The translations under genes and the position numbers were made by a program. Below the pieces are notes generated by a model. It was not told the DNA's origin, ran no database searches, and saw only the letters and a program-made list of their open reading frames with translations. DNA of 64,000 nt from Bryobacterales bacterium. Lineage in GTDB: Bacteria > Acidobacteriota > Terriglobia > Bryobacterales > Bryobacteraceae. Where the stretch lies: the NCBI GenBank assembly GCA_963716685.1, contig CAVQTR010000003.1, positions 3,225,500 to 3,289,499 on the forward strand, given 5' to 3'. Shown here piece by piece: positions 10,720 to 40,074 of the stretch; positions within the stretch are counted from its first letter, which is position 1, and every line of letters begins with the position of its first letter.

Positions 10720-11840
10720 TGCGCCTGAACCGTCTCGCTCTGCTGCTGACCGCTGCTGTTTTCGCTGCCACGCGCCCGCCGGATATTCCGTTTGAGAAGA
10801 TCACGCTCGATCTGGGCGCCAGCGAGAGCGCCGCCGTTGCCGACATCAATGGCGATGGCCGGCTCGACGTTGTCTCCGGCGAGAACTGGTATGAAGCCCC
10901 GAAGTGGACCAAACACCACTTCCGCGACCTGCCTTACACCAATTACTACATCGACAATTTCAGCGATCTGCCGCTCGATGTGAACGGCGATGGCGCCATC
11001 GACATCGTGGGCTGTTCCTGGTTTGGCAAGCGGCTGATCTGGTTTGAAAACCCCGGCAAAAAGGGTGGCCCGTGGAAAGAGCACCCCATCGATTCCGGGT
11101 TTAACATCGAGTTCGCGTTCCTTGTGGACATCGCAAGAAAGGGAGACCGGCGCGACGTTCTGCCGCAACCTGGCAATCAGGACTCGCCTCTCGCCTGGTA
11201 TGAAGCGCGCGACGGCGGCTTCACCAAACACATCGTCAGCAATCGCAGTTACGGCCACGGCATCGGCGCAGGCGACGTCAATAACGACGGCCGCACCGAC
11301 ATCCTGACCTCGAAAGGCTGGCTGGAAGCACCGGCCGACCCGCGCTCCCCCGCCGAATGGAAGTGGCACCCCGACTGGGACCTCGGCCAGACCGGTTTTC
11401 TCTTCGTCAACGATGTGAATGGGGACGGCCGCATGGACATCGTCACCTCATTGGCGCACGACTACGGCATTTTCTGGCTCGAACAGACCGCCGACGGCAA
11501 GTGGACCAAACACATGATCGACGACAGCTGGTCACAGGCGCACGCGGTCACCATGGTCGATCTGAACGGGGATGGCCGAATGGATTTCGTGACGGGCAAA
11601 CGCTTCTGGGCGCACAACGGCCATGATCCCGGAGGGCACGAACCGCTGGGCGTCTACTGGTACGAACACACCGCGGGCACGCCCATGGAGTGGGTTCGCC
11701 ATGTGGTGGATTACGGCACCCGCACCGGTGGGGGTATGCAAATCCCGGTGGCCGACCTGAACGGCGACGGCAAACCCGACTTCGTGGTCGCCGGCAAAGG
11801 CGGCCTGTTTCTGTTTCTCAACGAGCGGCCGAATCGCTGA
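10719..11840 (+). CDS. secreted FG-GAP/VCBS repeat beta-propeller protein
   Basis: ATG at 10719 overlaps the preceding TGA. Signal peptide MRLNRLALLLTAAVFAA. Repeated DxNGDGxxD(I/V)V motifs (DINGDGRLDVV, DVNGDGAIDIV, DVNNDGRTDIL, DVNGDGRMDIV, DLNGDGRMDFV, DLNGDGKPDFV). Confidence 0.7.
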   Translation: MRLNRLALLLTAAVFAATRPPDIPFEKITLDLGASESAAVADINGDGRLDVVSGENWYEAPKWTKHHFRDLPYTNYYIDNFSDLPLDVNGDGAIDIVGCSWFGKRLIWFENPGKKGGPWKEHPIDSGFNIEFAFLVDIARKGDRRDVLPQPGNQDSPLAWYEARDGGFTKHIVSNRSYGHGIGAGDVNNDGRTDILTSKGWLEAPADPRSPAEWKWHPDWDLGQTGFLFVNDVNGDGRMDIVTSLAHDYGIFWLEQTADGKWTKHMIDDSWSQAHAVTMVDLNGDGRMDFVTGKRFWAHNGHDPGGHEPLGVYWYEHTAGTPMEWVRHVVDYGTRTGGGMQIPVADLNGDGKPDFVVAGKGGLFLFLNERPNR

Positions 11841-11855
11841 CGGCCGGAAATCTCA

Positions 11856-13450
11856 TTACCCGGGCAGCAGAGCCCGAATCGTCTCGATGGTATCCGCTTC
11901 CGTGGCCGGTTTATCGAGCCGCCATCGCGCCATCCGGGGAAAGCGCACCGCAATGCCCGACCGGTGCCGCGGACTCTTCTGGATGCCTTCAAACGCCAGC
12001 TCAAAAACCAACTCCGGCTTCACCGACCGCACCGGCCCGAACTTCTCGATCGTGTTTCGTCTGACGAACGCATCCACCTTGCGAATCTCTTCGTCGGTCA
12101 GCCCCGAATAGGCTTTGGCGAAGGGCACCAGCGTGTCGCCGTCCCACACCCCAAACGTGTAATCGGTGAACAGACTGGCGCGGCGTCCACTTCCTGGCTG
12201 CGCATAGAGCAACACCGCATCGATCGAGAACGGTTCGATCTTCCACTTCCACCAATCGCCGCGGCGGCGCCCCACACGATAAGGCGATCCGCGGCGCTTC
12301 AGCATGAACCCTTCCACCCGGCGCTCGCGCGACTGCGGCGCGCAACTCCATCAGGCGCTCCCAGGATTCCGCCTCCACCACCGGCGAGAGCACCAGCCGG
12401 CCGCTGTCGCGCATCGACTCCACCAGCCCGGCGAGTTTCCCGCGGCGCTCTTCAATGGGCTCCTCGCGAATGTCGCGGCCTTCCCACTCCAGCAGATCGT
12501 AAGCCAGAATCACCACGGGCACATCCGCCAGAATCTTCGGCCCCAGCACTTTGCGCCCGATGCGCCGCTGCATCTGCGCAAACGGCAGCGGCTGTCCAGC
12601 CACCCACGGCAGAATTTCGCCATCGATCACCGTGCCCTCGGGCAGCAGCGCACCCATAGCCTCCAGTTCCGGGAAAGCGCTCCGTCACCAGTTCCTCGCC
12701 GCGCGACCAGATGAACGTCCGCCAGTTCCGCCGGATCAGCTGCGATCGGATGCCATCCCATTTCCATTCGATCTGCCACTCCGCGATGTCGCCCAGCTGC
12801 GCGATCTCGCCTTCGATCGGATAAGCGAGGAAGAACGGATAGGGCCGGCTCACATCCGCATCTTCGGCTTCGCTTCGCGATCAGCTGGGCGTAAAACTCG
12901 GGCGAAGGATGCCAGTCGCCCATCAACCGGTGAGAAATCACCGGAGCCGCGATGCCGCTCACCTGCGCCAGAGCGCGCACCACCAGACTTTGCGACACCC
13001 CCACGCGAAACGCGCCGGTGATCAGCTTGTTCCAGACGAACCGCTGCGGCTCGTCCATCTCCCGCCATGCATTTACGAGTGAATCGCGGCGCAGATCGTC
13101 GTTCCACCTCGCCAGCGGAAGCAGCCGCTCTTCCACCCAGTAATGCAGCGGCAGATCGGTGGTCTTCTCCGCGTCCGGCAGCAGCAGGGCAATCGTCTCC
13201 GCCAGGTCGCCCACCGCCTGATAGCACTCATCGAACATCCACCCCGGCACCTGCGGATTCTTCGATGGCCCACTCCACCAGCTTGCGGGTTTCGATCAGC
13301 CGCTTCGGGCGCCGCCCAATCAGAAAATGAATGGCCCAGACGGCGTCCTCCGGAGGAGCCGCGCTGAAGTAGGCCGTCAGAGCGTCGGTCTTCAGATTGG
13401 TTTTGGTGGTCTCGTCGAGCGCGGTGTACAGGTCCGCAAAAAGCCTTCAT
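11856..13450 (-). pseudogene. ATP-dependent DNA ligase (LigC-type, ligase-associated DNA damage response), reading frame broken at least 4 times
   Basis: Fragments spread over several frames: ligase N-terminal region (MKAF.ADLYTALDETT...), adenylation motif I (EWKWDGIR), the adenylation/OB domains, and the C-terminal motif (EGFMLKRRGSPY..GRR.GDWWKWK). One break is at an A5 run at 13439-13443, where A4 is expected. Confidence 0.7.
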
Positions 13451-13452
13451 GG

Positions 13453-14496
13453 CCGCCCGCCGCTAGTCCGTTTCCTCTTCGTTTTCAAAGCGCGTCTCGA
13501 GCGCGCGCGAGGCCAGGCCCTGCTCACTCAGCCACCGCACCAGCGGCGCGCGATAGCCATGCGTCACCAGCACTTGCTTCCGCTCCGGTTTCGGTCAATG
13601 GCGCGCAGCAGTCCCGGCCAGTCCGCATGATCCGAAAGCGCAAACCCGCGGTCGAGCGACTGGCGCCGGCGCGTTCCCCGTACCCGCATCCACCCCGATG
13701 CAAACCCTGTGGACACCGCGCCAAATTTCCGCATCCACGCGACTCCCATTGCAGGAAGGCGGTGCGACGATCAGCGACCGGCTCCAGTCGATACCCGCGC
13801 TCCACGTCGCCCGCGTACAGCGTCTCCGGCAAATCGATGCCGGACTCGCGATAGACCTGGTTCAATTTCTGCACGGCGCCGTGGCAAAAGATCGGCCCAA
13901 TCGCAGGGTCCACGCCGGCAATCAGCCGCTGCGCCTTGCCGAGCGAATATGCAAAGAGCACGCTCGCCTTCCCGGCCTGCTGATTCGCGCGCCACCAGGC
14001 GTCGATCTGCGCGAAGACCTCCGGCTGCGGGACGCCAGCGGTAGATCGGCAGTCCGAAGGTGCGATTCGGTGATGAAGGTATGGCAGCGTACCGGCTCGA
14101 ACGCGTCGCACGTGCGGTCTGTTGTCGATCTTGTAATCGCCCGAAACCACCCACACGTCGGCCAGCGGCTTCAATGCGCACCTGCGACGAACCCAGGACG
14201 TGTCCGGCGGGATGTAAGGAAACACGCACGCCACCCATGGCGATCGTCTCGCCGTACACGGCCGTCTCGATGCAGGCGTCTGTGCCGATACGGGCGCGCA
14301 GTATCCCGGCTCCCGCCGCCGATGTAAGATATCGCTTGGAACCCGAACGTGCGTGGTCGGAATGGGCGTGGGTAATAACAGCGCGGTCTACCGGACACCA
14401 CGGGTCCACGTAGAAGTCTCCCTGCTCACAGTAGAGACCGTTGGGAGTGACATCTAAAATAGCGTTCCACAGGCTCAGAGCCGCATCCTGTTTTCC
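13453..14496 (-). pseudogene. ligase-associated DNA damage response exonuclease (metallo-beta-lactamase fold), frameshifted
   Basis: LYCEQGDFYVDPWCPVDRAVITHAHSDHARSGS ... FGLPIYRWRP ... RGFALSDHADWPGLL is the typical partner of LigC-type ligases. The start ATG at 14496 is separated from the body by a homopolymer break (T4 at 14489-14492; reading 5 restores MEKQDAALSLWNAILDVT...). At least 2 more breaks lie further in. Confidence 0.65.
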
Positions 14497-14534
14497 ATGA
14501 TAGAGTGATGACTCAGATCGCGGGGGGGACCACC

Positions 14535-17500
14535 ATGAAGGTTTTTCCGATCTTATTTTTACTTACCACCGGCTTTCTGACCGGAGTTTCTCAAGCGGCA
14601 AGCGCAAGCCTTGACCGCGCGCTGGAATACGAAAGACAAGGCAATCCTGCTGCCGCGCGCAGCGTCCTGGTCAAAGGCCGTCCAGTCTTCGCCCCACGAT
14701 GCCCAAAGCCTAATCGATTACGCCCAGTTTCTGGACCGGTACGGCGACGCCAATGCCCGCGCCGTTTACCGGCAGGCTGCCGCCGAGTCCAAAAACCTTC
14801 CCGTTCTGAAGCGTATCGTGCTGCTGGACCTGTCGCCGGAGATCGGGCATCCGCCGCGAAAGACCTGGCCGCTTATCGAAGCGGCAGGCGGCACCGATTG
14901 GAAGCTCCGCGAAGTTCAGCTCGGCCGACACCGTGGCGGAAAAACGGCAGTACATCAAGATTCCCGGCCCGCTGCGTTCCTTCGGGCGCATGGCCGCGAT
15001 TTCGCCCGAAAGCGATCCGAACGAAGTGCTGGTCTCGCTGGCCCGCAACGTGGTCACCAACGGCTATCAGGCGTCGCACAGCAACGACGCTCTGGAACAA
15101 ACCGAATATCTGAAGCTGGTCAATCGCTATCTTTCGCAGGCGCGTGAACTGGAAAAGCTGGCCGGCGCCGATCACATGATCCACATCGCCAACTGCGATT
15201 CCACCGAGACCGGCGATCTGCTGCGGGTGCTCGGCTTCCGCATGCGCGGCGGCTGCGGCAGCGAAGTGGTGCTCGAAACCGTCAATGCCACCCGCGCCTT
15301 CCTGAGCACCGATTCCGGCTTTCCCATGGCGGAACTGGAACAGGCCCTGCGCACCAACAAGCCCTTTCGTCTACGATTATTCACCCAGCCGACGTCCCGG
15401 TTCTTTACGGCCCCGATTACTGGATCACCGCAGAAGGAAAAGAGCGACGGCGAATTCATCGACGCGTTCCTTGGCGATCCCGTCGCTCTGCCGTTTTTAT
15501 CTCGGCATGGCCAAGCTCGACCGCGCAGACTGCCGACGCGCTGAAGGAAGGACATTCCCGCTCCGCGGCTGCGCGCGTATGCTCACGTGCTCGATTTCTT
15601 CGGCGGCATGTTCGAGATCCGCGACGGCAAAGCGGTTGTTCCCGGCGGTCAGCGTTCCGCCGCGGCGTGGGCCGAACTGGCTGGGCGTCGAGTCCCGATA
15701 AGGGCGCTGCGTTCTTTGAAAAGCTGATGGCCAAAGACGATGGCTGGCTGGCCAGCCAGTTCGACGCGCTTTGCCCGCATTCACGGTCCCGTCCAGGAAT
15801 ACCTGACCGACCCGGCCCGCATGAAGCGGTTTTACTCCGCGATCCGCGGCAAAGTCACCAGCCCGGTCCGGCGCGCCCGGTATTCCGCGCCAATGCGGAT
15901 ATGATGCTGCTCACCACGCGGCTGCGCATGGACCCCAACGGTCAGGCCCACATCCCCGGCAGCATTGAGATCTGGAAGAATCTCTTCATCAACCATCCGC
16001 ACGGGAAGTACGACGCCAAGCTGACGCACGCGGCGCCCGGCTGGAAGGATTCCGATGACGTTCTCGAAGCGCTGTTCGGGCTGTCCCGCAAGTCCGTGGA
16101 AAACGAGCCGCTTAAGATTTTCATGGCGCTCAGCGATCTGGACCGCAACCGCGCGCAGCCGCTGAAGGCCGCCACAGTCGACCGGCTGGCCCGATCTTTC
16201 AAGGAATACGGAGCGCAGTACGCGATCTTCAACGACGCGCCCACGTCTGAAAGATCCCACCATCATCGCCTTTCTGGATACAGCCGCGAGGCATCGATAA
16301 GATCCGCGACACCGCGCTGCGTCAGAATGCAGCCGGAACCATGCAGGCGCTCATCGGCATGTGGCAGATCTTCTGCCGCCAGGGCCTGGTGGCGCAAGGC
16401 AGAGAAGACCAGACACTTGCCGGTATCCTGCAGCACTTCGACCAAGTGCGATAACGAAGCCGCATCTGTTCGATGGCGGCCGCGCCGGCGTGAAAGTGCT
16501 GCTGGCGGCCACGGGCCCGGTGCCCGCGGAAGGCGAAACCGCAGGAGCGCATGCTCGGGCTGCTGGCCGGCGTCAACAATCCTGTCCGACACCGACGTTC
16601 GCGACCAGCTGGTGACTGAGATGCAGCGCGTGCTCGAAGCGCAGCGCATACTCTCTCTCGACATCATCCTGCAGCTGGCCGACAATCTGGAAGGCGTTTC
16701 GCAAAGGTCAGAAGCTCAACGCTGCTCTGGCCGCGAAACTGGCCGCGCGCGTATCGGAAATTCAGCTCCCGCGCAACTCGCTTACCGGCGCGGAGAAGAA
16801 CGCGCTGGCGTTCGGCTACTGGACTGAGACGCCACATCGACGATGGAGCGCAAGACTCAACATGCGCGCGCTCATCGATAAGGCGCAGAAGGATCCGGAA
16901 AAGCTGAAGGAAATCCGCGGCCTGCTGGCGCCGTTCCTGCGCGACACGCTGGTGGCTTACAACTACGTCCACTATGCCCCGCCGGGCGCGCAGATTCTGT
17001 ATACCAATCCGCTGTTCGTCCGCGGCCACGATTTCATCGGAATGCAGGGCTCGAACCACACCTGGAAGGCCACCGAAATGTTCGGCACCGGCTGGCCTTC
17101 GAATGGCGGCGGCCGCCTGGTGGGCTCGCTGTCGGACCTGCCTTACGCGCTGGCCGAAGCCGAACAGAACTTCCTGATTCCCACGCAGACGCAGGCGCTG
17201 ATCTGGGGCGATCTGGTTCCGCAGATGATTCTGAGCGCCAAGATCCCGCGCTGGTGGAACGTGACCCCGGCGCAGATGCACTGGGTCGGACTGCACATGC
17301 GCTACGGCCAGTCGCTGCTGGCTGAGGCCGCTGCTCGATCCGAAGCTCCGGCCATGCCGTGCTGGATGCGCTCGAACTTGCAGGCGGCTCCGGCGCGCCG
17401 CGTCAGCGTCGAGCGATTCCCTGGCGGCCGGTGATGTCCGGCAGGCCATCGACAAGCTGACTCCCTCCGAACTCTACGGCATGGCGTGCGAGATGTCGTC

Positions 17501-17935
17501 GCACGGCTTCACCGATGCCGGCCCGGAAGCCGCCGAACTCACGCGGCTGAAGAACGACAACGCCGCACAGGTGAGCGATGCGGCGATTTCGCGGCCTTCG
17601 GAACGCCCAAGCCGACGCTCGCGAATTCCTACAGCCGGAACTGCTGAAGCTGCGCACCTTCCCTACGCTGATGGGCTATTCCAGCCGCATCATGGCGGAG
17701 AGCTGGGAATCGAATATGCTCTACTGGGCCGCGCTGGCCGACCAGCTGCAGATTTCGCCGGCGCAGCTGAACGTGCTGATTCCGGAGTGGACGCAAAAAG
17801 TGGTGGAACGGATCTTCGCCTCGCATCTGGAAGACTGGCCGGCGTTGTTGAAATCGCTGCGGCTGGTGGGCGAAGACGTTCGAGCTACAGGCATTGAAAA
17901 ACAGCGGTGGAGACCAAAAGGCGGCTTTGATTCAG
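14535..17935 (+). pseudogene. large hypothetical secreted protein (about 1100 aa), reading frame broken at least 5 times
   Basis: Six consecutive same-strand ORFs in alternating frames (14505, 14611, 14933, 15667, 16862, 17578). All have protein-like composition. The first carries a signal peptide (MKVFPILFLLTTGFLTGVSQA). No family recognised. Confidence 0.35.
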
Positions 17936-17937
17936 TG

Positions 17938-18953
17938 ATGAAGCGAATGTGGAAAGTGGCGGCGCGTCTCGCCGCTTGTCGTCGGCGGCGGCATCTGGTT
18001 GTGGGCGCAGGATCCAGTGGGCGCCGGACCGCTCCGCCGTATTCAAATCCAAAGTGGATCTGGTGGTGCTGAGCTTCACGGTGACGGATAGCAAGGGCCG
18101 CTACATCAACGGTCTGAAGCCAAGCGATTTCCGCATCACCGAAGACGGCATCACGGAGAAACTCACCACGTTCGCCGAAGGCACGCAGCCCGGCGATGGA
18201 GGTGCTGCCCGACGGCACGCTGCGGCCGATGGTCAAGGCCGAAGACGAGGTCGGCGAAACCGGGACAGGGCGCGCCGACGCTTTCGTCGGCACCAACGTG
18301 TTCGTTCTCTTCGACACCAGCAACTTCATGTACAAAGGCTTCGTCTACGCGGAGGACGCCATCGCCGATTTCGTGCGCGGCCTCGATAAAGCCGATTCCG
18401 TCGCGGTCTATACCTTCAGCCGCAATCTGTCGCGCGCCGCGTACGCTGACCGCGCGACCGCAACGACGCCATCATGGGCCTGCGCAAAGCCGTGGCCGGA
18501 GACGATACCGCGCTTTACAATGGCCTGCTGCTGTCACTGCGCGATGCCGCGAAGGTGCCGGGCCGCAAGGTGGTCATCGTGTTCTCGAACGGGCCGGATA
18601 ACGCCAGCATGGTGGCTCCCGACGATGTCCGCGCCGTCGCCGAAGACGAAGGGATTCCGATCTACGTCATCTCGACCAACGAGGTGAACAAGGACTCCAT
18701 CTCGAGCAGCGTCTTCCGCCGCATCACGTCGCGCACCGGCGGCAAAGCCTACTGGGCCAAGACCTGGCAGAAACAGGTGGAAGCCTTCGAGAGCATCCGC
18801 GAGGATCTCGGCAACTCCTACACCGTCACGTACTATCCGCAGCCGAATCCCAACGAAGGGTTCCGCAAGATCAACGTCGAAATTACCAGTGACGCCGGCA
18901 AGAAGTACCGGGTCCGGTCGCGGCCCGGCTACCGCCCGCGCGCGGCTTGTTAG
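17938..18953 (+). pseudogene. VWA (von Willebrand factor A) domain protein, frameshifted (3 frames)
   Basis: MKRMWKVAARLA.. signal. Then ...VDLVVLSFTVTDSKGRYINGLKPSDFRITEDG ... VFVLFDTSNFM ... VVIVFSNGPDNASM ... IPIYVISTN ... YTVTYYP, the architecture of acidobacterial VWA proteins. Confidence 0.6.
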
Positions 18954-21312
18954 ACTCCGGCGCCATCCAGCAATCCGGATCTGACCTTCTTCTTCCTTCT
19001 GGGTTTGTCTTCCAGCGCCGCCTGGCATTCTCGCGTGGCGCTCGCCTTATCGCCCTTTTGCACCAGCGCCATCGCGTAGTGATAGTGATAAGTCGGGTTG
19101 TCCGGCACCTTGCGCCACCAGGTCTTTAAAGATCTCGACCGCGTTGTTGTACAGGTTCTTCTTCAGGTAAATCCAGCCGATGGTATCTGAAACCTCGGCG
19201 AGGCTCGGCAGCTTCTGTTTGGCGCGAGTAGCCAGGGTCAGCGCCTCGTCCAAGTTGCCGCCGGTCTCCGCCATCAGGTAGGCCAGAGTTGTTCAGCGCT
19301 TCCGGATTGTTGGGATCGCGTTTGATGGAAAGCTCGTACACTGAGCGAGCTTCGGCGTGCTGCCCGGTGTTATCCAGTAGGATCGCCAGATTGTTTAGAA
19401 CGATGGTATTTTCCGGAATCAGATCCTTGGCTTTCTTGTAGCCCTCAATCGATTTCGGAGTATCTTTCATATCGTAATATGTCGCGGCAAGGCGCGCCCA
19501 CACTTCGCCCTCGGCCGCGGGTTGTTCTTATAGCGGCCCAGCAGATCCTGGTAAACGGTCGCTGCCATCGGGTACTGGCCGGTGCGCAGTTCGAAATCGC
19601 CGAGATCGCGTTTCAGATCGAGGCGGTCCGGAAAGCGCTCGGTTCGGTCTTAATCAGTTTGACCGCCTCTGCCGGCTGACGCATCATAAGTGTAGCTTCC
19701 GCCTGGCCCAGAAGGCCTCGTGGGTTGGAAGGGTCGGCATCGTAGGCGTGCCGGAAAGAAGCGGCGGCGTCCTGATATTTCTTCTCCATCAGATCCAGCA
19801 CGCCCATTTCCAGCAGCGTGTCGGGCTGTTTTGCATTAGCAGCGAGCAGTTGGTTCAGGGTGGCCCGCGCCTCCGTCAAACTTCTGCATGCGCATCAGCG
19901 CCGCCGATTGCAGCAGCCGTGCGGCACCGCTCTTCGGATTCTGTTTTAACCCGTCCTGCGCATACTGCAGCGCGCCATTAGCATCGCCGCGGGAAAGCGC
20001 GACCTGTGCCAGCGCCAGACGCGGAGGCAGATAATCGGGACGGAGCTCAATGGCTTTCTGGAACTGCTGCCGGGCCTGCTCATACTCGCCTTTGGCGAAG
20101 TGGGCGCGGCCCAGATGGAAGCGCGCCACGAAGTTATCGGGACGCGCGGTGACCACCGCCTGCAGCTCGTTAATGGCCTGCTTGATGTCGCCCTTATCCA
20201 GAAGGAAACTGGCTTTTAAGCCGCGCGCTTCAGGGTCCTTCGGATTGGCTTTCAGGATCTCCTGATTCTTCTCATACGCCTGCGCCACTTTCCCCTCGTG
20301 AATCAAAGCCTGGATAATCAGCTTCTGGTACTCCAGCTTGCGTCCGGAATCCTTATCAATGCCCTCTTCGTACTGCTTGATCGCTGTAGGGCTGTCGTTC
20401 AGACGCAGATAGAAGTCGCCGGCGGTGAAGAACGCATTGGGGAAGTTCTTGTAATCCCGCTTCATGCTCCTCCAGCATCCCGACGGCATCGGGACGCCGG
20501 TTGTTGTTGAAGTAAAACGCCGCCAGCAGGGTCTTGTAGTTGTAATCCTTGGGATTGGCCGCAATGGCTTTCTTCAGCAGGGCTTCGGCTTCCGCCGTTT
20601 TCCTCTCGCCCATGTAAAGCCGATAGAGCTCGATGTAACCCAGCGTGCCGTTCTTGCCCTGATCGATGACGCCGCGATAAAGCTGCTCCGCTTCCGCCGG
20701 CTGGCCGTAAAGCGTCAGCGTGCGCGCCAGTGAGAGCATCACCTGCGGCTGGCCCGGCCGTATTTCCAGAGTACTGCGGTAACCCGCAATAGCGTCCTCA
20801 ATGGACTTCTTGGAATCGATTAGATTATTGCGCTTGTACTGGCCCACAGCGCGCGTAAATGCCAGATCGGCCTTCAGTTTATGACCTTCGAACGAACGCG
20901 GATTGCGCTGCAGGAATCCGTCGGCAATCTGGTCCACTTCCGTAATCAGCGGAAGATCGCGATTCGGCTGATCGGACTGCTGCACTGCCTGCAGCAGAAT
21001 TTCCGCCAGATCCAGGCTGCTTTCGTCGTATTCCTTCGACCCTTTGGGAAGCAGTTCCATCGCCCGGCGAAGTGCGGGAACGGAGTTGGCAACCTGTCCC
21101 TGCCTGAGGCTGGTCTGCGCCAGATGGTAATACGCATCCCCGTACTTGCCGTCCACCGAAAGGGCGCGGCGGTACATGATGGATGCTTCTTTGTAATGTC
21201 CCTTCTCGAAATAGGCATTGCCACGATCGAGATACCGCTTCCTGACGACCTTCGGGTCGCGGCTGCAACTGACTAATGCAATAGATATAAGAACGAGAGC
21301 AACGGCGCGCAT
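18950..21312 (-). pseudogene. TPR-repeat lipoprotein (about 785 aa), frameshifted at least 4 times
   Basis: Lipoprotein signal MRAVALVLISIALVSCS, then continuous TPR repeats across ORFs 20356-21345, 19836-20564, 19613-19879, 19126-19503 and 19047-19274. The stop overlaps the VWA stop convergently (18950-18953). Confidence 0.6.
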
Positions 21313-21352
21313 AGAAACCTTCAGCAGCCCGTGCCTTTTCGGCACAAACGAC

Positions 21353-24300
21353 CTATTCTACCGCGACAGTTGGCGCAGCCGGTCCTGTGGTAGTACTACT
21401 CACGCTGCCGATCTTGATGGTGACCGGCAAGGTGTCGCCGTTCATATGTACGCCTGGAACCGTGACATTGATTTGATTGACACCCACCAGACCGGGAACC
21501 AGACCGCTGAAATTCACAATCACCGGAGCCTGGCTGTAGCCCTGCGGGCCGAAGAAGACCTGCACCGGCGCGGTAACTGCCAGCGGACTGGTCGGCGCCG
21601 CGTTGCCAGCCGTCACTGCCCCTCCGGTAGTCACGCCGAGACCAGTAGCGTAAATGACCAGTTTCTGATCGCGCGTAGTCGGATTGTCCTTCGTCACCGG
21701 TTTGCCGTCCGCATGATAGATGGCAGCCTGCCCCGTGGAACTCACGAAGATTGCGGGCGCATACTGCGTCACGGTGATGGGAGCCGCAACCTGGGACGCA
21801 GCCTGATTCGCGATCGAGCGGACGGTCAGCGAATACCGACCGGCCGTCAGCGTGGGAGGCAGCTGCGCGTTGATTTGTCCGGAAGTGGTAGCGATCAGCG
21901 GCAGTGCCGTGGTACCCAGCGTCACGCAGGTGCCGCCGAGGACCGTAGGAAGCGGAGTCGCGGAAGCAGTGGCCACCGCCGCAAGGTTCTGTCCAAAGAT
22001 GCCAATCAGGCTGCCCGGAGCCACGGCCGTTTGATAACTGCCGAGGTTCACCACGCCGCCCTGACTCACCTGGGGCCGAGCGGACGCCGGTACAGGCGTT
22101 AGTGGAATGATCGATAGACCGCTCATGGTGAGAATGTACGCCGTGTTCGAAACCGAATCGATCGCGAGCGTACGGCCGGCGGTAACCACCGCTCGTGTTC
22201 CGGTCACCGTGGAAGCCTGCCCTTCGAGCGCATTCGTCACCCCCATAGCCGTACCGGTGGTCGCATTATCCATTTCGATCTGGCCCGCATCGGAAGGGGT
22301 CGCCGTGGCAGTGGCCGTCACCGGCTGCGTGAAGCGCGCGAAGGTTGTGGCACTGACCGCCACGGCCGCCCAGGTGGGCCGCACGGTTGTAGTGGTCGTG
22401 GTGGTGGAAGTTCCGGGCAGATTCTGCGGCGTCAGCGCCGAATTCAGCAGAGTTCCGTTTACTACGTAGTACTGTCCTTTGGGCCCGGCGGCGACCGGAC
22501 CAAGGAAGCCGGAGAGCGTCGTAAAAATCTGGCGCGCAATCGTGTAATCGTCAACGCTGGCGTCGTAAAGGTAAACGTACCCTGCGCCGGTGGCCAGGAT
22601 CACGTATTCTCCGCCGGGAGTGGCCGCCATGGTGCGCGAGGTGTTCTGAGTGGTGCCGCCGGAAACGGTTTTCACCGTGGTGGTGTTCGAGCCGCCGAAA
22701 ATGGCCGGATTCAGCGTGCGTGGAATTGCCTGGTTGCCATCGATTTTCCACAGGCTGCCGTCGCTCATCACAAACTGCGGCCCGCGCTCACTTGACGCGA
22801 TCGAAACCGGATAAGCAAGCGTAACGGCAACATTCGTGGGAATGGCGGGAAAGATTACCTGTCCCACTGTCTGGCCCTTATTCAAATCCACCATGCTGAT
22901 GGATTCGCCGCCGGTATTCGCAACATAGAGCGTCACGCCATCGTTGCCCATCGCCATCGAGTGCGGCAGCTGGCCAACCTTGATCGGCGTCCCGAACTTC
23001 TGGGTCGCCAAATCGAACACCTCCACCTCATTGAGGCCGGAGTTCGCCATGTAGAGCTTGCGGCGGCTGGAGTCCAGCATGATGTCCACCAGGGTTTCCG
23101 CCGGACTGATATTCTGCGCAACGGGGATAATCGTGCCGCGCGCATCGGCATCGCGGTTGTTCTCGTAAACGCGCACGCTCGCCGGAATGTTGACGGCTTC
23201 CGGCGACTGCACCAGGAAATCGTTGGGGCCGACCGTGCCGGGTTTGGTGGCTGCCCGGGAATTGTATTTAAAGGTGAGAGTCGCGCCGTTCTGAGAAGAG
23301 GTTTGCTGCACAATCGGAACGGTTCCGGTGGCAGTCGTGGTCGTCGTCGTCGTCGTCGTCGTGGTTCCGCCTCCGCCCGCTCCGCCGTTTCCGCCGCCGC
23401 CAACCGGCGTAAGACCCCCGCCGCCGATGATGCCAATAATTCCGCCGATGCCGCCACCGGGGAAGATGACTCCGCCGCCCGCGCCGCCAAAGCCGCCGAG
23501 CCCGTTTACCCCGGTGGTAGGGATGGTGTAAGACTGAACGTTCACGCTCAGGCGGCCGGCGCCCGTATTGGTAACCGGGTCAGCGAGGGAACTCTGGCTT
23601 GAGGTGACGCCGCATTGATCGTTGGCCAGCAGAACCGTCTGCGTGGCAACCTGCGCGAGTGGGCTCTGTGCCAGGGACCCGATTGGCAGGGTGACGAACC
23701 CCGACTGCGAGAGGCCGTAAATGGTGTTGCCGGCAGCGTTGATTACCATCCTGCCGGACAGGCTCTCCGGCAGCTGCAGGCCCAGCCGGATCAGCAGATT
23801 ATCCGGATCGTTCACCAGCAGACGGGTAACATTGGCGTTGGCCGGCGGGTTCTGAATTGGCGCAAAATTGAAAGCCGCGTAAAGCACCGAGCCATCCGGC
23901 GAGAACACGCTGCCGCCCTGGTTGGTCTGGGTGTTGAAGTTGGCTCCGGAAGGAAAAGCGAATGGCGCGTTGGCCACATTCTCCTGGGCGCGAATGGAAA
24001 GCGTCTGCGTATCAAAGAGAGAGGAGCCCGCCATGAACTTCGTCCCGTCCGGCGAAACCGAGAGAACGTTCGAGAGATTGGTGACCACGCGGCTCTGCAG
24101 CACCGTTCCGGAAGCTACCTGATAGAGGAAAACCACGCGGTTGTTGGTGGTTGCCGAGCTGGTGACGTTGGCGCCGATGATCATGGTTCCGTCCGAAGTC
24201 GTCAGCAGCTTGCTGTGATACGAAGCGTATGTGTCTCCAGATGGCGCCGGGAGAGTCGGCGGAGTCGGCGCGGCGGGAGTAATGGCGACGTTGGTTAGCC

Positions 24301-24793
24301 GGCTGGAGGAAGGCGCGGAAGGATCATAGATCAGCAGGATATTCGAGCCGGAACTGCCGACAGTCGAGATGAGCACGCGGCCATCACCGCCCGCGGCCAC
24401 CCCTTCGGGACTAGCGGGAAGGCTCACCCGATTAGTGACGGAGAGAGTGCTCTTAGTGAGATCGACGATATCGAGCGTGCCTCCGGTATACGCAGTCACG
24501 TAGAGGGTCGGCGAAGCCGCGGATCCCGCCGCCGGCGCCAGGGCAACAGAAACCGGTTGCGAATCGACCGTGATAGAGGCAAGAAAAGTTTTCTGCTGGA
24601 TTGAATAAACGTCAACCCGGTTGCCGGAGCTGTCGCACAGGTAGAGCCTCTGGCGGGGCTCGTCGAGAACAACGTCGGAATACGAGCCTCCCCCGGGAGC
24701 GGGGACAACCGTCCCAAACGTGGCGGAGAAGCCTGGCAATGCGGCGAGCGCGGAAAATACTAAGAATAACGCGGGACGCATGGGTACTCCCAT
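21353..24793 (-). CDS. secreted YVTN/NHL-type beta-propeller repeat protein with Gly/Thr-rich linkers and C-terminal TIGR03437 (Solibacter C-terminal) domain
   Basis: 1146 aa. Signal peptide MRPALFLVFSALAALPGFSA. Repeated propeller blades. Low-complexity GGFGGAGGG...TTTTTTTTTTT. The C-terminal segment ...YAPAIFVSSTGQAAIYHADGKPV...GLVPGLVGVNQINVTVP... matches the TIGR03437 pattern. Confidence 0.75.
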   Translation of the reverse strand: MGVPMRPALFLVFSALAALPGFSATFGTVVPAPGGGSYSDVVLDEPRQRLYLCDSSGNRVDVYSIQQKTFLASITVDSQPVSVALAPAAGSAASPTLYVTAYTGGTLDIVDLTKSTLSVTNRVSLPASPEGVAAGGDGRVLISTVGSSGSNILLIYDPSAPSSSRLTNVAITPAAPTPPTLPAPSGDTYASYHSKLLTTSDGTMIIGANVTSSATTNNRVVFLYQVASGTVLQSRVVTNLSNVLSVSPDGTKFMAGSSLFDTQTLSIRAQENVANAPFAFPSGANFNTQTNQGGSVFSPDGSVLYAAFNFAPIQNPPANANVTRLLVNDPDNLLIRLGLQLPESLSGRMVINAAGNTIYGLSQSGFVTLPIGSLAQSPLAQVATQTVLLANDQCGVTSSQSSLADPVTNTGAGRLSVNVQSYTIPTTGVNGLGGFGGAGGGVIFPGGGIGGIIGIIGGGGLTPVGGGGNGGAGGGGTTTTTTTTTTTATGTVPIVQQTSSQNGATLTFKYNSRAATKPGTVGPNDFLVQSPEAVNIPASVRVYENNRDADARGTIIPVAQNISPAETLVDIMLDSSRRKLYMANSGLNEVEVFDLATQKFGTPIKVGQLPHSMAMGNDGVTLYVANTGGESISMVDLNKGQTVGQVIFPAIPTNVAVTLAYPVSIASSERGPQFVMSDGSLWKIDGNQAIPRTLNPAIFGGSNTTTVKTVSGGTTQNTSRTMAATPGGEYVILATGAGYVYLYDASVDDYTIARQIFTTLSGFLGPVAAGPKGQYYVVNGTLLNSALTPQNLPGTSTTTTTTTVRPTWAAVAVSATTFARFTQPVTATATATPSDAGQIEMDNATTGTAMGVTNALEGQASTVTGTRAVVTAGRTLAIDSVSNTAYILTMSGLSIIPLTPVPASARPQVSQGGVVNLGSYQTAVAPGSLIGIFGQNLAAVATASATPLPTVLGGTCVTLGTTALPLIATTSGQINAQLPPTLTAGRYSLTVRSIANQAASQVAAPITVTQYAPAIFVSSTGQAAIYHADGKPVTKDNPTTRDQKLVIYATGLGVTTGGAVTAGNAAPTSPLAVTAPVQVFFGPQGYSQAPVIVNFSGLVPGLVGVNQINVTVPGVHMNGDTLPVTIKIGSVSSTTTGPAAPTVAVE
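23333..23363 (-). repeat. (GTC)n/(GGT)n microsatellite inside a CDS, encoding a poly-Thr run
   Basis: gtcgtggtcgtcgtcgtcgtcgtcgtcgtgg read on the minus strand gives TTTTTTTTTTT. It is coding low complexity, not a CRISPR array. Confidence 0.6.
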
Positions 24794-25315: not shown

Positions 25316-28300
25316 CTAGAAGGCGAAGCGAAGCTGAAGATCAATTCGGCGATTATTGGTGCTTCCGCCCGGCGGCCCGAAACCGCCGCCCCCCAGAGCA
25401 TTGGCCACTCCAAAGAATGGAGACGTGAGATCGCCGTTGTAGTTCGCCGGGTTCACATGGTTCAACAGGTTCCGCGCGTTGGCCGAAATGGTCAGGTTGT
25501 AGCGCTTGTTGGTGACACCGCCGCCACCGCCGCCCATGCCGCCCATCATGCCGGGCATCCCGCCGCCGCGTCCACCGCCACCGCCACCGCCCCCGCGTCC
25601 GCCGCCGCCGCCCATACCACCGCCACCGCCGCCGCCCCCGGTGTTGGGACGGGCAGCGCCCTCACCAAAGCCCCATGTCTTCGAAATGCGAAGGTTCACG
25701 GTGAACGTCCCGGGGCCCTGACCATAGTTGCGGGGAATCAGCGCGGAGCCGGGCACGGGATTCAGATAAAAATCCCCGTAAGCCGTGCATTTTACGTTGT
25801 TTGTGCCGCAGGCAGAAGCCGGCGCAAACGACGGGCGTCCGTTAAAGAGAGTGGTGCCGTAGACGTCGTGTCCCACTGTAATGTTGAACGGCGGTCCCGT
25901 CTGCATCGTGATGAACGGGCTGAAGCGGACGTTGTACTTCGCGTTGAACGATCCGCTAATGATGCCGCGATGGCGAATGTCCTGTGAGGAACGGCCGTAA
26001 TCCTGAGACAGATTGTACTGGTCGGCCGGAAAGGAACCGGCACCGTCCGTGTTGCTGTGTGCGTGAGCGAACACGTAATACCCGAATACGGATAGATTCG
26101 CGTTAATCCGGGAATTTACATTGGTAATCAATTGATTCTGATTAAATGTTCCGTTGGATTCATATTGGAACAGGTTGCCTGCGGCCGCGCCGTACGGGAA
26201 CGCGCCGCCGACGACGCTTCCGCGGTTATTGAAGATCGCGGTGCCGTCGAGGGGGGCATTAATGTCGCGGGAGAGAAACTGATGCGTGGTGTGCGACATC
26301 ATGTAGTTCACCGCGATCGTCGTGTTGTAAGGAAGGCCGCGTTCCACGCCGATCGCTCCCTGATAGGTAGCGGGCGCGTGAAGGTTGGGGTCCAGCGTGT
26401 AAATGGTGCTGGCGGAAGATCCACTCTGGCCCGCCAGGGCCTGAATAGTGGCGATGGAGGGGACGTTAGGGAAGAAGTTCGGCGACGTGATGATGTAGGA
26501 ATGCTGCAGGCTGCCGTTAAAGCGCTCGGTCTGCAACACGTTCGACACGTTGAAGCGGTCGTAGAAAATACCCGCGCCGCCGCGGACCACCGTCTTCGAT
26601 TTGCCGGCCTGACCGGGCGACCAGGCAAAGCCAAGACGCGGGGCCACATCGGAATGGTCGTGGATATTGGTCTGATACTCGTACCGGATACCGCCGCTCA
26701 GGGTCAGGTTGGGGCGGACGCGCCAGTCGTCCAGAAGGAAGACGCCGACATCGGTTTGGTTCAGCCCAATATAAGGACTACCGGTCGCGATGGAGAACTG
26801 CGTGGCTCCGGCCCCGGCAGCGGTGAGCTGAGTAGGGGTATAGCCAAGCGCCTGCAGCTGGAGGGTGCGCTGATAGAGCTGCAGCGAGGTCAGCTGCACG
26901 CACGTAGTGGTGACGCTCTGCGAAGGCGAACAGCCAGGCAGCGGATTGTTGTTGGCATCGAGCGCCGGGGCAAGCGCGCTCGCGAACTGGAAGGAGCCGC
27001 CGAAATTCTGCGCGGAGGAGTTGTTTACGAAGTACGAACGCAGGCGGAACCCGGCTTTGATCGAGTGTGCACCCTGCGCCAGCGAGGTATAGTTCTGCAG
27101 TTCGGCATGATGCTCCTTGTCATACGACCGTCCCACCTGGCTGCCGCCGCCGCTGAAGGACTGCAGCACGTTGATGGAAGGAAGCGAGTTGTCGCCCGTC
27201 TGGACGCTGTTGGTCATCAGGTACTGGAACCGGGTTTCGTTAATGACTTTGGTGCTCAGAACGGCGGTTTCCGTGATGCGCACGCTCTGTTCGGTGTTTT
27301 CGGTGTTGTAGGCCTGCGAAGGCAGAGTAAACTGCCCGAGACCCGCATCGCTCTGCTTCTGCTGCTGGAAGGAGTAGCGCATCACGATGGTGTTATTACC
27401 GTTGATCTGATAATCCAGCCGCGGGCTGATCTCGTTGCGCGAATTCGGCGTGGGAACCGAAGTGCTGAACGGGGCCGGCTGCAGAGCGCTGTTCAGGGTG
27501 TAGGCATTAATAATTGCGTTGTCGTTGATGGCGCGGCGCTGCAGGTCGAGAAAGAACGAAGCCCGCTTGCTGAGCGGGCCGCTCAGATTGCCCTCATACA
27601 GTTTGGATTGGAAGGTGGGGCTGAAATTGTTGGTCGCAACGGTCCCCGGGCTCAAACCCGTAACCGCCGCGCCGGGCTGCTGTGAGGCCACCAGAAACGG
27701 GTTGCGCGAGTTGAAAACCGAATCGCTGTCGTTGAACATCACCGAGCCGCGGAACTTGTCCGTACCCGGCTTGGTCAAAATTTCAATGCGGCCAAAGCCG
27801 ATGTGATCGTATTCGGCCGAGAAGGGATTCTGGTTGATGCGGATTTCACGGATGGAAGACTTGGGAGGCAGGTTGCCGCCGGTGAATCCATCGATATAGA
27901 TCTGGCCCCCGTTGGGACCGGCGGAAGGACCGGCAAGCGCCTGAAGATCGGCTGCCAGATCGTCGGGATCGTCGGGGAGAGCTTCGAGGTCGCTGCCCTT
28001 CAGAACCAACTGGCCGGCGTTGGCCACCGGATCCACGCTAACAGTGCCGACAGCGTCGGAACTGACCGTGACTTCCTGCTTATTGGCCTGGAGGTCGAGC
28101 GGGATGCTAAGGGTCTGAGTCCTGCCGGCCGCGATCGAGATTGGCTTTGAATTGTACGGAGCGAAGCCAAACTTGGTGATCTGGACGGTGTAGTTACCGG
28201 GCGCCAGGGCAGCGGCAGTAAACGAACCGGTCTCGTCTGTGGAGAGCGTCTTCGACGTGCCCCTTCCGGCCACAATCACGGCGGCTCCGGGGATGGCCGA

Positions 28301-28423
28301 ACCCGTTACATCCGTCACCTGACCTTTCAGGGTGCCGCCGGGAGCAGGCTGCGCATCGGCCCCGGGGGCCAGTATGCCCAGGCAAAGAAGGAAAAGGGAA
28401 AGACAGGTTCGATTTCGAGACAT
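25316..28423 (-). CDS. TonB-dependent receptor with N-terminal carboxypeptidase-regulatory-like domain, and a Gly-rich insert near the C-terminus
   Basis: The start is the ATG at 28423 (MSRNRTCLSLFLLCLGILAPGADAQ). A CarbopepD_reg-like domain follows (GTLKGQVTDVTGSAIPGAAVIV..), then the plug and barrel. (G)n run: GGGGGGGGMGGGGGRGGGGGGGGRGGGMPGMMGGMGGGGGG. Terminal aromatic residue F. Confidence 0.85.
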   Translation of the reverse strand: MSRNRTCLSLFLLCLGILAPGADAQPAPGGTLKGQVTDVTGSAIPGAAVIVAGRGTSKTLSTDETGSFTAAALAPGNYTVQITKFGFAPYNSKPISIAAGRTQTLSIPLDLQANKQEVTVSSDAVGTVSVDPVANAGQLVLKGSDLEALPDDPDDLAADLQALAGPSAGPNGGQIYIDGFTGGNLPPKSSIREIRINQNPFSAEYDHIGFGRIEILTKPGTDKFRGSVMFNDSDSVFNSRNPFLVASQQPGAAVTGLSPGTVATNNFSPTFQSKLYEGNLSGPLSKRASFFLDLQRRAINDNAIINAYTLNSALQPAPFSTSVPTPNSRNEISPRLDYQINGNNTIVMRYSFQQQKQSDAGLGQFTLPSQAYNTENTEQSVRITETAVLSTKVINETRFQYLMTNSVQTGDNSLPSINVLQSFSGGGSQVGRSYDKEHHAELQNYTSLAQGAHSIKAGFRLRSYFVNNSSAQNFGGSFQFASALAPALDANNNPLPGCSPSQSVTTTCVQLTSLQLYQRTLQLQALGYTPTQLTAAGAGATQFSIATGSPYIGLNQTDVGVFLLDDWRVRPNLTLSGGIRYEYQTNIHDHSDVAPRLGFAWSPGQAGKSKTVVRGGAGIFYDRFNVSNVLQTERFNGSLQHSYIITSPNFFPNVPSIATIQALAGQSGSSASTIYTLDPNLHAPATYQGAIGVERGLPYNTTIAVNYMMSHTTHQFLSRDINAPLDGTAIFNNRGSVVGGAFPYGAAAGNLFQYESNGTFNQNQLITNVNSRINANLSVFGYYVFAHAHSNTDGAGSFPADQYNLSQDYGRSSQDIRHRGIISGSFNAKYNVRFSPFITMQTGPPFNITVGHDVYGTTLFNGRPSFAPASACGTNNVKCTAYGDFYLNPVPGSALIPRNYGQGPGTFTVNLRISKTWGFGEGAARPNTGGGGGGGGMGGGGGRGGGGGGGGRGGGMPGMMGGMGGGGGGVTNKRYNLTISANARNLLNHVNPANYNGDLTSPFFGVANALGGGGFGPPGGSTNNRRIDLQLRFAF

Positions 28424-28466
28424 AGGGTAGTTACAGGTAAGTTCCGGTTCGTTGGATTTCCCCACG

Positions 28467-29732
28467 TTACTGTGGGATGGACATTTCAAAGTTCCAGCCG
28501 CCATCGACAGCCGAGCGGCCGCCGCCTTTGGTAGGAGCGGTAAGCAGCGGCTCCACGCCGGCTACCAGGCTGATTGCCGTCACGCTGGTGGGATCGCCGC
28601 CACCGGAGCTCGAAACCATAATGGCATCGCCCGGTTTCAGATCGGCAAGGGTAATCGTCGGGGCATTTTCAAGGACGCGTGCGGGGTCGAAGCGACGTCC
28701 GCCGCCAAAGCCGCCGCCACCCGGACCACCGCCGCCCGGACCGCCGGGTCCGCCAGCGCGGGGCTGGCCATCACCGGAACCATACGCGGGACGTCCCTCG
28801 GCTCCGGCAGGACGGCCCTGACCACCGCCAGGACCACCGGCGCCGCCTGGACCACCCGCTCCGGGAGCGCCACCCCCGGCTGCCGCGCCTGCCTGCTGCC
28901 GCGCCATCATGGCCGCCAGCATGGCAGGCAGTTTCTTCACGGTCGTGCTGTCATTGACCTTAACGGTCACGGGCTTCTTCGTGGCGAGATCGGTCATGCG
29001 CACCGTTTTGGCCGCCGCGTCCACCGAAATGATGGTGCCCGCCTGCCGGACGAACGTTCCATACACAATCTCTTCCGGCTTCACCCGCAGGCCGTCTTCC
29101 GACTTTTGCCCCAGCACGCGAATGGTATCGCCCGCTTTGATTTCGGAAAGGCTGCTTGGCTTGGCGTCGGAAAACTTGACGGAATCCGCCGCGTAGCGAT
29201 GCACTTCGGCTTTATCGACGGGCTCCACCACAATCTGCCTGGGATCGGTGCCGATGGTCTTGAAGGTAATCTCCTTCGTAGCGGGATTGACCAGCGTCAC
29301 CGTCCCGGCGAGGCCGCGCTTCTGCCACTCTTCCTGGCCGGCCTGCTGGTGTTTCGCCAATTCGGCCTTGGTCATCACCACCATCGTGGTCGCGGGGCTG
29401 AAGCTGCCGTTGTCCAGCTTGCGCACCCGGGCAAGAGCGCGATCGCCAACGCCCAGATCACCTTCTTTCACTTCGGTTGCTTTTTTCAGGTCTTTTTCGC
29501 CGGGCGCGAGTTTCAGAAAGTGTGTCTTATCGTCAAACGTGACAGTCGAGGAAGTGCCGTTATCGGCTTTGATGGTCACCTGTTTGGTGGCACTGTCCAG
29601 CGCGGTCACTTCGCCCAGGATGCTCGCAAAGGCCGATGGTTTTGACGCCGGCGCCGTGGCCGCGTCCTGCCCCACAGCCGGAAACGATGCGGCTGTAAGA
29701 CAGATGATGCTCAAAACAGAGAACTTCCACAT
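28467..29732 (-). CDS. secreted repeat protein (four roughly 70-aa beta-rich repeats, DUF5666-like) with a Gly/Pro-rich linker
   Basis: ATG at 29732 gives MWKFSVLSIICLTAASFPAVGQ. Internal repeats have the form T(V/I)T..D..T....V.V.....(K/V)..L..L..GD.I.V. Linker: GGGAPGAGGPGGAGGPGGGQGRPAG...GGPGGPGGGGPGGGGFGGG. Confidence 0.5.
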   Translation of the reverse strand: MWKFSVLSIICLTAASFPAVGQDAATAPASKPSAFASILGEVTALDSATKQVTIKADNGTSSTVTFDDKTHFLKLAPGEKDLKKATEVKEGDLGVGDRALARVRKLDNGSFSPATTMVVMTKAELAKHQQAGQEEWQKRGLAGTVTLVNPATKEITFKTIGTDPRQIVVEPVDKAEVHRYAADSVKFSDAKPSSLSEIKAGDTIRVLGQKSEDGLRVKPEEIVYGTFVRQAGTIISVDAAAKTVRMTDLATKKPVTVKVNDSTTVKKLPAMLAAMMARQQAGAAAGGGAPGAGGPGGAGGPGGGQGRPAGAEGRPAYGSGDGQPRAGGPGGPGGGGPGGGGFGGGRRFDPARVLENAPTITLADLKPGDAIMVSSSGGGDPTSVTAISLVAGVEPLLTAPTKGGGRSAVDGGWNFEMSIPQ

Positions 29733-31179: not shown

Positions 31180-31254
31180 TGGAGCGGGAGACGAGAATCG
31201 AACTCGCAACCAACAGCTTGGAAGGCTGTGACTCTACCATTGAGTTACTCCCGC
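31180..31254 (-). tRNA. tRNA-Gly (anticodon TCC), 3' CCA encoded
   Basis: Minus-strand sequence: GCGGGAGTAACTCAATGGTAGAGTCACAGCCTTCCAAGCTGTTGGTTGCGAGTTCGATTCTCGTCTCCCGCTCCA. It has a 7-bp acceptor stem, an anticodon loop CTTCCAA and a T-loop GTTCGATTC. Confidence 0.8.
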
Positions 31255-31328: not shown

Positions 31329-32326
31329 ATGAGCCTCCGAACCTTTCTGGGCAAGCAGTTTATCGATGTAATCGACTTTACCGAGCCGGAGGATGGCATC
31401 CTGGCCTACCGCTATCCGATGCAGGACCGCGAAATCCAGAACGGCGGCAAGCTCACCGTGCGCGATTCGCAAATGGCCGTCTTCGTCAACGAAGGCAAGA
31501 TCGCGGACGTGTTCGGCCCCGGTCTCTACACCCTGAACACCCAGACCCTGCCGATCCTTACCTACCTGATGAACTGGGACAAGGCGTTCCAATCGCCTTT
31601 CAAGAGCGACGTCTATTTCTTCTCGACGCGCATCCAGACCAACCAGCGCTGGGGCACCCCGAACCCGATCACCATCCGCGATAAGGATTTCGGCGTTATT
31701 CGCCTGCGCGGCTTCGGCATCTTCTCGTATCACGTCAGCGATCCCAAAACCTTCTACAGCAAGGTCAGCGGCACTCGCGATATCTATCATGTTGCCGATC
31801 TCGATGGCCAGCTCCGCAACACCATCGTCGGCCGCATGTCCGATTCGTTTGCCGCCAGCAACGTGCCGTTTCTTGACATGGCCGCCAATCAGATGATGCT
31901 GGGCAACAAAATCGCAGGATTCCTGAAACCGGTATTCGTCGATCTGGGCCTGACGCTCGATTCGTTCGTCGTCGAAAACCTCTCGCTGCCGGAAGAACTG
32001 CAGAAGATTCTCGATCAGCGCATCGGCATGAACATGCTGGGCGATATGAACCGGTACACCCAGTATCAGGTGGCCAACTCGCTCCCCATCGCGGCCGCTA
32101 ATGAAGGCGGACTGGCGGGGGCCGGAGCTGGCCTCGGCGCCGGTTTCGCCATGGCGCAGACGCTGGGCAACGCGCTGCGTCCCCAGCAGCCGCCGCCTGC
32201 TCCGGCTCCGGAAGCGTGCCGCTCCGGCCACTCCCTCCACCGAAACCAAGTTCTGCATCGACCTGCGGCAAGCCCATCCCGAAAGGCGCCAAATTCTGTC
32301 CGGAGTGCGGCGGTCCTCAGCAATAA
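31329..32326 (+). pseudogene. SPFH/band-7 family protein with C-terminal zinc ribbon (COG4260, virion-core-like); two frameshifts in the zinc-ribbon tail
   Basis: N-terminal SPFH domain (MSLRTFLGKQFIDVIDFTEPEDGILAYRYP...) and a Pro-rich linker. The zinc ribbon (T.TKFCIDCGKPIPKGAKFCPECGGPQQ*) is split across three frames within about 80 nt (32200-32326). The listed 447-aa ORF is a read-through chimera with the next gene. Confidence 0.65.
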
Positions 32327-32327
32327 C

Positions 32328-34477: not shown

Positions 34478-34479
34478 CC

Positions 34480-34665
34480 ATGCGCCACCCTTTTTACACA
34501 ATTTACGGCATTGCGCTCATCGGTCTTATGGGCTTCGCGCAGTTCCGGGGCTGGACGCTCAACTCGCTGAATCAGGAGCCTTCCTCACCGCGCTCCGTGC
34601 GCGACAATCCCGGCGCGTATCGCTCCACTTACGGCGGCTATTCTCGATATACAGGAGGAAAGTGA
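34480..34665 (+). CDS. small membrane protein
   Basis: 61-aa ORF with one TM helix (IYGIALIGLMGFAQF), tightly packed between the DUF4178 and DUF350 genes. Confidence 0.35.
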   Translation: MRHPFYTIYGIALIGLMGFAQFRGWTLNSLNQEPSSPRSVRDNPGAYRSTYGGYSRYTGGK

Positions 34666-34878: not shown

Positions 34879-34879
34879 C

Positions 34880-40071: not shown

Positions 40072-40074
40072 CGC

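Follow-up and report, generated by a model that had tools for sequence, protein, structure and literature searches.

Clustered frame breaks in fifteen Bryobacterales genes: probable consensus errors of a long-read assembly

Fifteen genes in one stretch of a Bryobacterales genome are split across reading frames, and the origin of these breaks is the subject of this report. The stretch covers positions 3,225,500 to 3,289,499 of contig CAVQTR010000003.1 (assembly GCA_963716685.1). It is 64,000 nucleotides long and is called the window below; coordinates are counted from its first letter. The window has a GC content of 62% and encodes Bryobacterales-type proteins, and its source contig is 3,393,393 bp long, a length that implies a long-read assembly. 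Alignment to intact orthologues with an aligner that allows for frameshifts places 72 events in the window, namely 59 of +1, 2 of +2 and 11 of −1 nt. Most of the events are random one-base insertions and not homopolymer miscounts. We put the probability at about 92% that the breaks are technical, that is, consensus errors of a long-read assembly that survived in a few stretches of 3–8 kb. Sequence error in preference to gene decay is well supported.

Events were mapped by aligning orthologous proteins to the window with a purpose-written protein-to-DNA local aligner that has explicit +1, +2 and −1 states. It was written because plain tblastn, whose high-scoring segment pairs ran across frame changes, is unsuitable for placing breaks. 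A reference-free codon-usage hidden Markov model for frame tracking was also tried and set aside in favour of this aligner, since strand and frame shadows made it too noisy at 62% GC. No sequence of the same species was found in the collections searched; the top ligase match is 88% identical and the top hom match 90%. The nearest relative comes from JGI sample 3300066018, with two syntenic contigs on which all genes are intact. In one of them (L002), the order beta-propeller, TPR-787, VWA, 1126-aa protein, exonuclease and ligase matches window 23393..11865, and the other (L055) runs from SPFH through a response-regulator kinase and matches 31.2–47.6 kb. A third contig, L056, was dropped as a reference for 58.4–62.7 kb because it is frameshifted itself. 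Placing indels at the DNA level against the nearest relative (76–80% nucleotide identity) is ambiguous on its own, and therefore every possible one-base correction was scored at the protein level, with simulations as controls.

Distribution of the frame breaks

The events are strongly clustered. In 2-kb bins the variance/mean ratio is 9.9 (chi-square p = 4e-47), and the density profile along the window is step-like, with three patches:

Patch A, 12336–20466 (no strand assigned): 55 events, 6.8 per kb; orthologues on L002
Patch B, 32217–35708, plus strand: nine +1 insertions in the SPFH, DUF4178a, DUF4178b and SpeE-like genes
Patch C, 39939–43231 (no strand assigned): six events in pyrR, pyrB, pyrC and a DEAD/MZB helicase gene

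Within Patch A the spacing of events fits an exponential distribution (Kolmogorov–Smirnov p = 0.71), and more than 11 kb on each of its flanks is event-free. Patch A begins within the ligase gene and stops within the TPR gene, so that the final 470 nt of the former and the initial 0.85 kb of the latter are free of events. Outside Patch A the mean density is 0.30 events per kb, mostly contributed by 32.2–35.7 kb (9 events) and 39.9–43.2 kb (6 events). Orthologue alignment found no events in the beta-propeller ORF (open reading frame), hom, amine oxidase, MoxR, PilZ, AdoMet decarboxylase, DUF350 or kinase genes. The segments 1–11.8, 23.4–31.2 and 47.6–58.4 kb are made up of long ORFs that abut one another and match Pfam profiles at full length, among them SSF (profile positions 1–406/406), GH43 (1–288/288) and DHO_dh (2–291/291).

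The genes of Patch A, and the intact gene directly beyond it, are as follows:

11856–13450, minus strand: ATP-dependent DNA ligase (TIGR04120 type); five +1 events at ~12336, 12676, 12872, 13251 and in the A5 run 13438–13442
13466–14497, minus strand: ligase-associated DNA damage response exonuclease; eight +1 events and one probable −1
14535–17935, plus strand: conserved protein of ~1126 aa, no Pfam match; 29 events (23 of +1, 2 of +2, 4 of −1)
17935–18950, plus strand: VWA-domain protein; five +1 events at ~17965, 18029, 18189, 18442 and 18455
18975–21345, minus strand: TPR protein (orthologue 787 aa); seven events (4 of +1, 3 of −1)
21353–24793, minus strand: intact 1146-aa ORF; zero frameshifts over 679 orthologue-aligned residues

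The ligase was rejoined by hand from five ORF pieces and is then 88% identical, over 100% of its span, to intact 530-aa ligases from Bryobacterales metagenome-assembled genomes (MAGs). The corrected protein matches the NCBIfam equivalog TIGR04120 over profile positions 1–526/526 with 654 bits (cut-off 400); NCBIfam names this family 'cisplatin damage response ATP-dependent DNA ligase'. In the exonuclease gene the +1 sites are at ~13577, 13593, 13741, 13790, 14031, 14062, 14120 and 14160, and the probable −1 lies near the start codon in the T4 run 14491–14494; once corrected, the protein matches the NCBIfam equivalog TIGR04122 over profile positions 2–326/326 with 492 bits (cut-off 325). Correction of the ~1126-aa protein gives 82.9% identity to its L002 orthologue over residues 1–1126 with zero in-frame stops, and the corrected VWA protein is 88.9% identical over 333/333 residues. 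The TPR events all fall in the 3' 1.5 kb of the gene (~18999, 19112, 19287, 19513, 19641, 19877 and 20466). The 29 events in the ~1126-aa gene stand against 0 in the neighbouring 1146-aa gene.

The ligase and exonuclease genes adjoin those of the ~1126-aa and VWA proteins (11856–18950), an arrangement also present in L002, and they have neither an Lhr-type helicase gene nor a phosphoesterase gene as a neighbour. Synteny with L002 stops at the ligase 3' end (~11840–11860), beyond which the window has an FG-GAP protein and L002 has PAP2 and PHP. Patch A starts ~0.5 kb away from this breakpoint, whose position may be a coincidence or may mark a strain-variable junction with lower read support. 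The 1146-aa protein is a secreted beta-propeller-like protein with a Gly-rich stretch, then a run of 11 Thr, then a second Thr run. Its low-complexity linkers differ in length from those of the L002 orthologue.

The remaining breaks lie in Patches B and C and at two single sites:

32217 and 32260, plus strand: SPFH, two +1 events
32796 and 33142, plus strand: DUF4178a, two +1 events
~33454–33463, plus strand: DUF4178b, one +1 event
35189, 35277, 35377 and ~35708, plus strand: SpeE-like, four +1 events
~39939: pyrR, one +1 event
~40192 and ~40667: pyrB, two +1 events
~41984: pyrC, one +1 event
~42692 (−1) and ~43231 (+1): DEAD/MZB helicase, two events
51589–51632, minus strand: two-PDZ protein, one −1 event, with the frame change between ...NMPEIP and PRLGIE...
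59970–59973, minus strand: Fer2-FNR-like reductase, one −1 event at the N-terminus, in a coding-strand T4 run

The sites in Patch B agree among three independent orthologue sets (L047, L008 and L055). One product of the frame errors is an artificial SPFH–AdoMet_dc fusion ORF at 31329–32672. The genes at 31329–37848 (plus strand) form a conserved polyamine-type cluster with the same order in L055, L008 and L047, comprising SPFH with a zinc-ribbon tail, AdoMet decarboxylase, two DUF4178 genes, a 61-aa gene, DUF350, a membrane-fused SpeE-like spermidine synthase and amine oxidase. The sole tRNA gene of the window, tRNA-Gly(TCC) at 31180–31254 (minus strand), lies in a clean stretch just upstream of SPFH.

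The original prediction, made from the letters and ORFs of the window, had reported about 15 genes split across frames, and orthologue alignment returns the same 15; the breaks are several times as many as it implied (72 in all, with 29 in the ~1126-aa gene alone). Its clustering in patches is borne out by the bin statistics, its clean long ORFs are found at 21353–24793 and 25316–28504, and the two shifts it saw in the SPFH tail are placed at ~32217 and ~32260.

Inserted bases and homopolymer runs

Insertions account for 85% of the events, a bias of 61:11 over deletions (binomial p = 1.5e-9). For the 45 insertions with clean flanks, each possible one-base removal was scored against the orthologue. 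More than half of these resolvable +1 events (25/45) are explicable by a lone base only, for example cttt[G]cccg at 15772, atac[G]tggg at 33142 and gaag[C]gaag at 12872, and none of the 45 involves a run of 4 or more. The observed fraction of singletons-only events, 0.56, is to be compared with simulations in intact genes analysed by the same inference, in which insertion of random bases gives 0.50, whereas duplication of the neighbouring base gives 0.08, as does extension of runs of 3 or more. The insertions are consistent with addition of random bases, and homopolymer extension is rejected.

The placement of the breaks is blind to codon phase, to gene borders and to gene essentiality (pyrR, pyrB and pyrC are affected). 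Events that can be placed only in phase 1 make up 0.20 of those observed; random placement predicts 0.17, and restriction of insertions to the neighbourhood of the third base predicts 0.05. Natural indels arise mostly by slippage and are deletion-biased. Insertions of lone, non-templated bases, placed irrespective of frame, gene border or gene importance, are unlike natural indel mutagenesis and resemble what residual read errors would leave. Programmed frameshifting and phase-variable tracts were considered and rejected, there being up to 29 shifts per gene, no dominant motif and no long runs.

Runs of 4 or more bases occur within ±6 nt of 5/72 events, compared with 8% of random coding positions. 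When the two classes are taken separately, such runs lie near 2/61 insertions against the same background of 8%, and near 3/11 deletions against a background of 5–8% (p ~0.02–0.05). Four deletions are possible under-calls of runs whose restored length is 4–6. They are at 14491–14494, at ~15861 (C3 in the window and C4 in the orthologue), at ~51600 and at 59970–59973; the remaining 7/11 deletions lie at runs of 1–2. The break at ~51600, in the PDZ gene, overlaps a coding-strand C5 run and may be a homopolymer under-call. At the FNR break the closest relative reads ATT-TAC-TAT-GAC (I-Y-Y-D), which leaves the lost base ambiguous between a T of the run and another base. For at least 85% of the events, homopolymer-length miscalls are unsupported.

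It was from three homopolymer examples that the original prediction had argued that breaks coincide with differences in run length. The three restorations quoted there do translate as it said, although their positions need mending. The A5 run that had been put at 13439–13443 occupies 13438–13442, the T4 run that had been put at 14489–14492 occupies 14491–14494, and the T4 run at 59970–59973 is A4 on the plus strand and T4 on the coding strand. These examples are a biased sample, and the proposed coincidence disappears when all events are counted, with 5/72 near runs of 4 or more and 0/45 resolvable insertions inside them. Its diagnosis of sequence error, not decay, survives on other evidence, and its mechanism of run-length miscalls fails for the bulk of the breaks.

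In 60 insertion events scanned, no dominant motif was present at the insertion sites. TCGA, the top-ranking 4-mer, occurs near 15/60 sites against 6.3 expected, and CCGCA/TGCGG near 11/60 against 3.3 expected (both within ±8 nt and not corrected for multiple testing); these modest k-mer enrichments are given no reading.

Sequence error, gene decay and other origins

After frame correction all 15 genes are full length with zero in-frame stops, and their identity to orthologues is 66–94% (77–89% in Patch A), the same range as that of the intact neighbours. Identity at codon positions 1/2/3 is 86.6/93.5/56.6% in the gene with 29 events; the corresponding values in intact genes are 90.8/94.9/58.8% for hom and 81/87/47% for the beta-propeller gene. 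As the codon-position pattern is alike in broken and intact genes, purifying selection is still visible downstream of the breaks. Divergence is far greater at the third codon position than at the other two, contrary to the relaxed constraint expected of pseudogenes. Only indels of 1–2 nt were seen, and the broken genes contain no larger deletions.

Related assemblies offer a further view of the breaks. Among the relatives fetched around hom, frameshifts in hom occur only in L049 (3 events, L049:10253–10580) and L051 (2 events, L051:10517–10975), away from long runs in every case. These two loci belong to long-read MAGs of the Microflora Danica project, and their contigs are named in the Flye style; in the same set of relatives, loci whose contig names indicate short-read assembly have zero hom frameshifts. 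L056 (ENA ERZ25039595 contig_72644, with a Flye-style name of the form 'contig_N') is 90% identical in DNA to window 58.4–62.7 kb, and within L056:9500–13800 the CLC, globin, FNR and MarR genes carry breaks of their own, at which the window is either unbroken or broken at different positions. The private frameshifts of L056, L049 and L051 are mostly away from long homopolymers. The Microflora Danica long-read pipeline uses Flye and one round of Medaka, and Nanopore-associated errors are flagged in its lower-coverage MAGs (PMC12313526). The long-read MAG loci serve here as relatives only.

Based on this evidence, the technical origin can be set against its rivals. Genuine recent pseudogenisation, in which a localised burst of frameshift mutations truly broke the genes, is highly improbable. 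The breaks are truly present in the deposited sequence, the evidence here is sequence and not reads, and bacteria rich in pseudogenes exist. A burst of this kind is at odds, however, with the lack of nonsense codons and larger deletions, with unchanged codon-position conservation and intact orthologues, and with a bias towards non-templated single-base insertion, natural indels being biased the opposite way, towards deletion and slippage. Nor does it sit well with 29 events in the ~1126-aa gene beside 0 in the adjacent 1146-aa gene, with patch edges inside genes, with the involvement of all three of pyrR, pyrB and pyrC, or with hom frameshifts that among relatives are limited to long-read assemblies. 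It is extremely unlikely that the extra bases are real through a localised mutational process in this lineage, for instance repair or replication of 3–8-kb segments with error-prone, template-independent addition of bases, that inserted +1 bases very recently; if it were true, 15 genes including pyrR, pyrB and pyrC would be inactivated in the sampled population.

Two further rivals are themselves technical. Homopolymer-length miscalls of the Nanopore, 454 or Ion type can claim one insertion within the A5 run 13438–13442, about 4/11 deletions at runs with a restored length of 4–6 and the marginal enrichment of deletions near runs of 4 or more (3/11). As the main source of the breaks they are nevertheless very unlikely, given that insertions are 85% of events, that 0/45 lie in such runs and 25/45 are obligate singletons, that only 2/61 insertions are near such runs against 8%, and that 7/11 deletions are at runs of 1–2. 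A mixed-strain consensus, with both alleles kept in series at polymorphic sites so that +1 events appear in strain-variable stretches, is a subtype of technical error and would account for the excess of insertions, for their being lone, non-templated bases and for their clustering in patches; the ~0.5 kb between the left edge of Patch A and the L002 synteny breakpoint at the ligase 3' end is also in its favour. Natural polymorphism favours third codon positions, yet the insertion phase matches random placement in what is an indirect test (phase-1-only events 0.20, compared with 0.05 expected next to the third base), and this subtype is accordingly judged improbable.

In the preferred account, consensus errors of a long-read assembly, the consensus in a few stretches would rest on very few reads or would have escaped polishing. 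Random single-base insertions from reads, with a minority of deletions, would persist in such stretches, and neighbouring stretches would be essentially error-free. The densities of 6.8, 2.6 and 1.8 per kb would then reflect differing local depth, and patch sizes of 3–8 kb would correspond to the length of a long read or of a polishing chunk. The insertion-dominated, non-homopolymer signature resembles the random insertions of PacBio continuous long reads (CLR) or a low-depth consensus bias. Several points weigh against this account. The signature is not a textbook one, as insertions outnumber deletions ~6:1 and shun homopolymers. Low depth or missing polishing as the cause of the patches is an inference, as is the sequencing platform. 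In the ligase no surplus of substitutions was found at columns invariant among 120 homologues, a surprising result if the errors stem from near-raw reads, albeit one from a low-power test; its sole match fell at a junction of the hand-joined protein. Finally, 1–11.8, 23.4–31.2 and 47.6–58.4 kb are without an orthologue reference and were called clean from uninterrupted ORFs and full-length Pfam matches only.

Consequences and comparison with known systems

The breaks are an ordinary assembly-quality artefact and hold no biological novelty. Annotation of the contig would list ~15 false pseudogenes or fragmented ORFs in the window alone, and estimates of completeness and coding density as well as pathway calls (e.g. 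pyrimidine synthesis) would be skewed. Since the signature is one of single bases inserted at random in step-like patches, most of the errors would escape polishers and filters that are homopolymer-aware; correcting frames by homology or from reads would find them.

Indel errors of long-read assemblies are known from Kastor, Homopolish and IDEEL-type checks (PMC12007338, PMC8011154), and as in the window, one-base indels split conserved genes. Homologue-guided frame correction restores full length in both cases, long contigs and related long-read MAG loci are affected, and the density of the known errors depends on local depth and polishing. The gene-fragmenting indels described with Kastor are mainly homopolymer-linked and, for Nanopore, deletion-biased (PMC12007338), whereas 85% of the events in the window are insertions without homopolymer association. 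The 61:11 bias, the random codon phase, the lone bases and the lack of private ligase substitutions (a weak test) are a likeness to PacBio CLR data. Errors in single-pass CLR reads are random and insertion-dominated, with few substitutions and hardly any dependence on sequence context. Errors of single-pass reads have been described as random (PMC12007338). The likeness has its limit in that the relatives with similar private frameshifts are Nanopore MAGs (PMC12313526), and the platform used for the window is not readable from its sequence.

Reductive genomes such as that of Mycobacterium leprae share with the window many interrupted genes, metabolic ones included. In M. leprae and in recent host-restricted symbionts, gene loss is accompanied by nonsense mutations, larger deletions and relaxed selection, and is scattered genome-wide. 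Unlike those genomes, the window has indels of 1–2 nt only, no stops and intact signatures of selection, and its breaks are confined to sharp patches that cut through genes.

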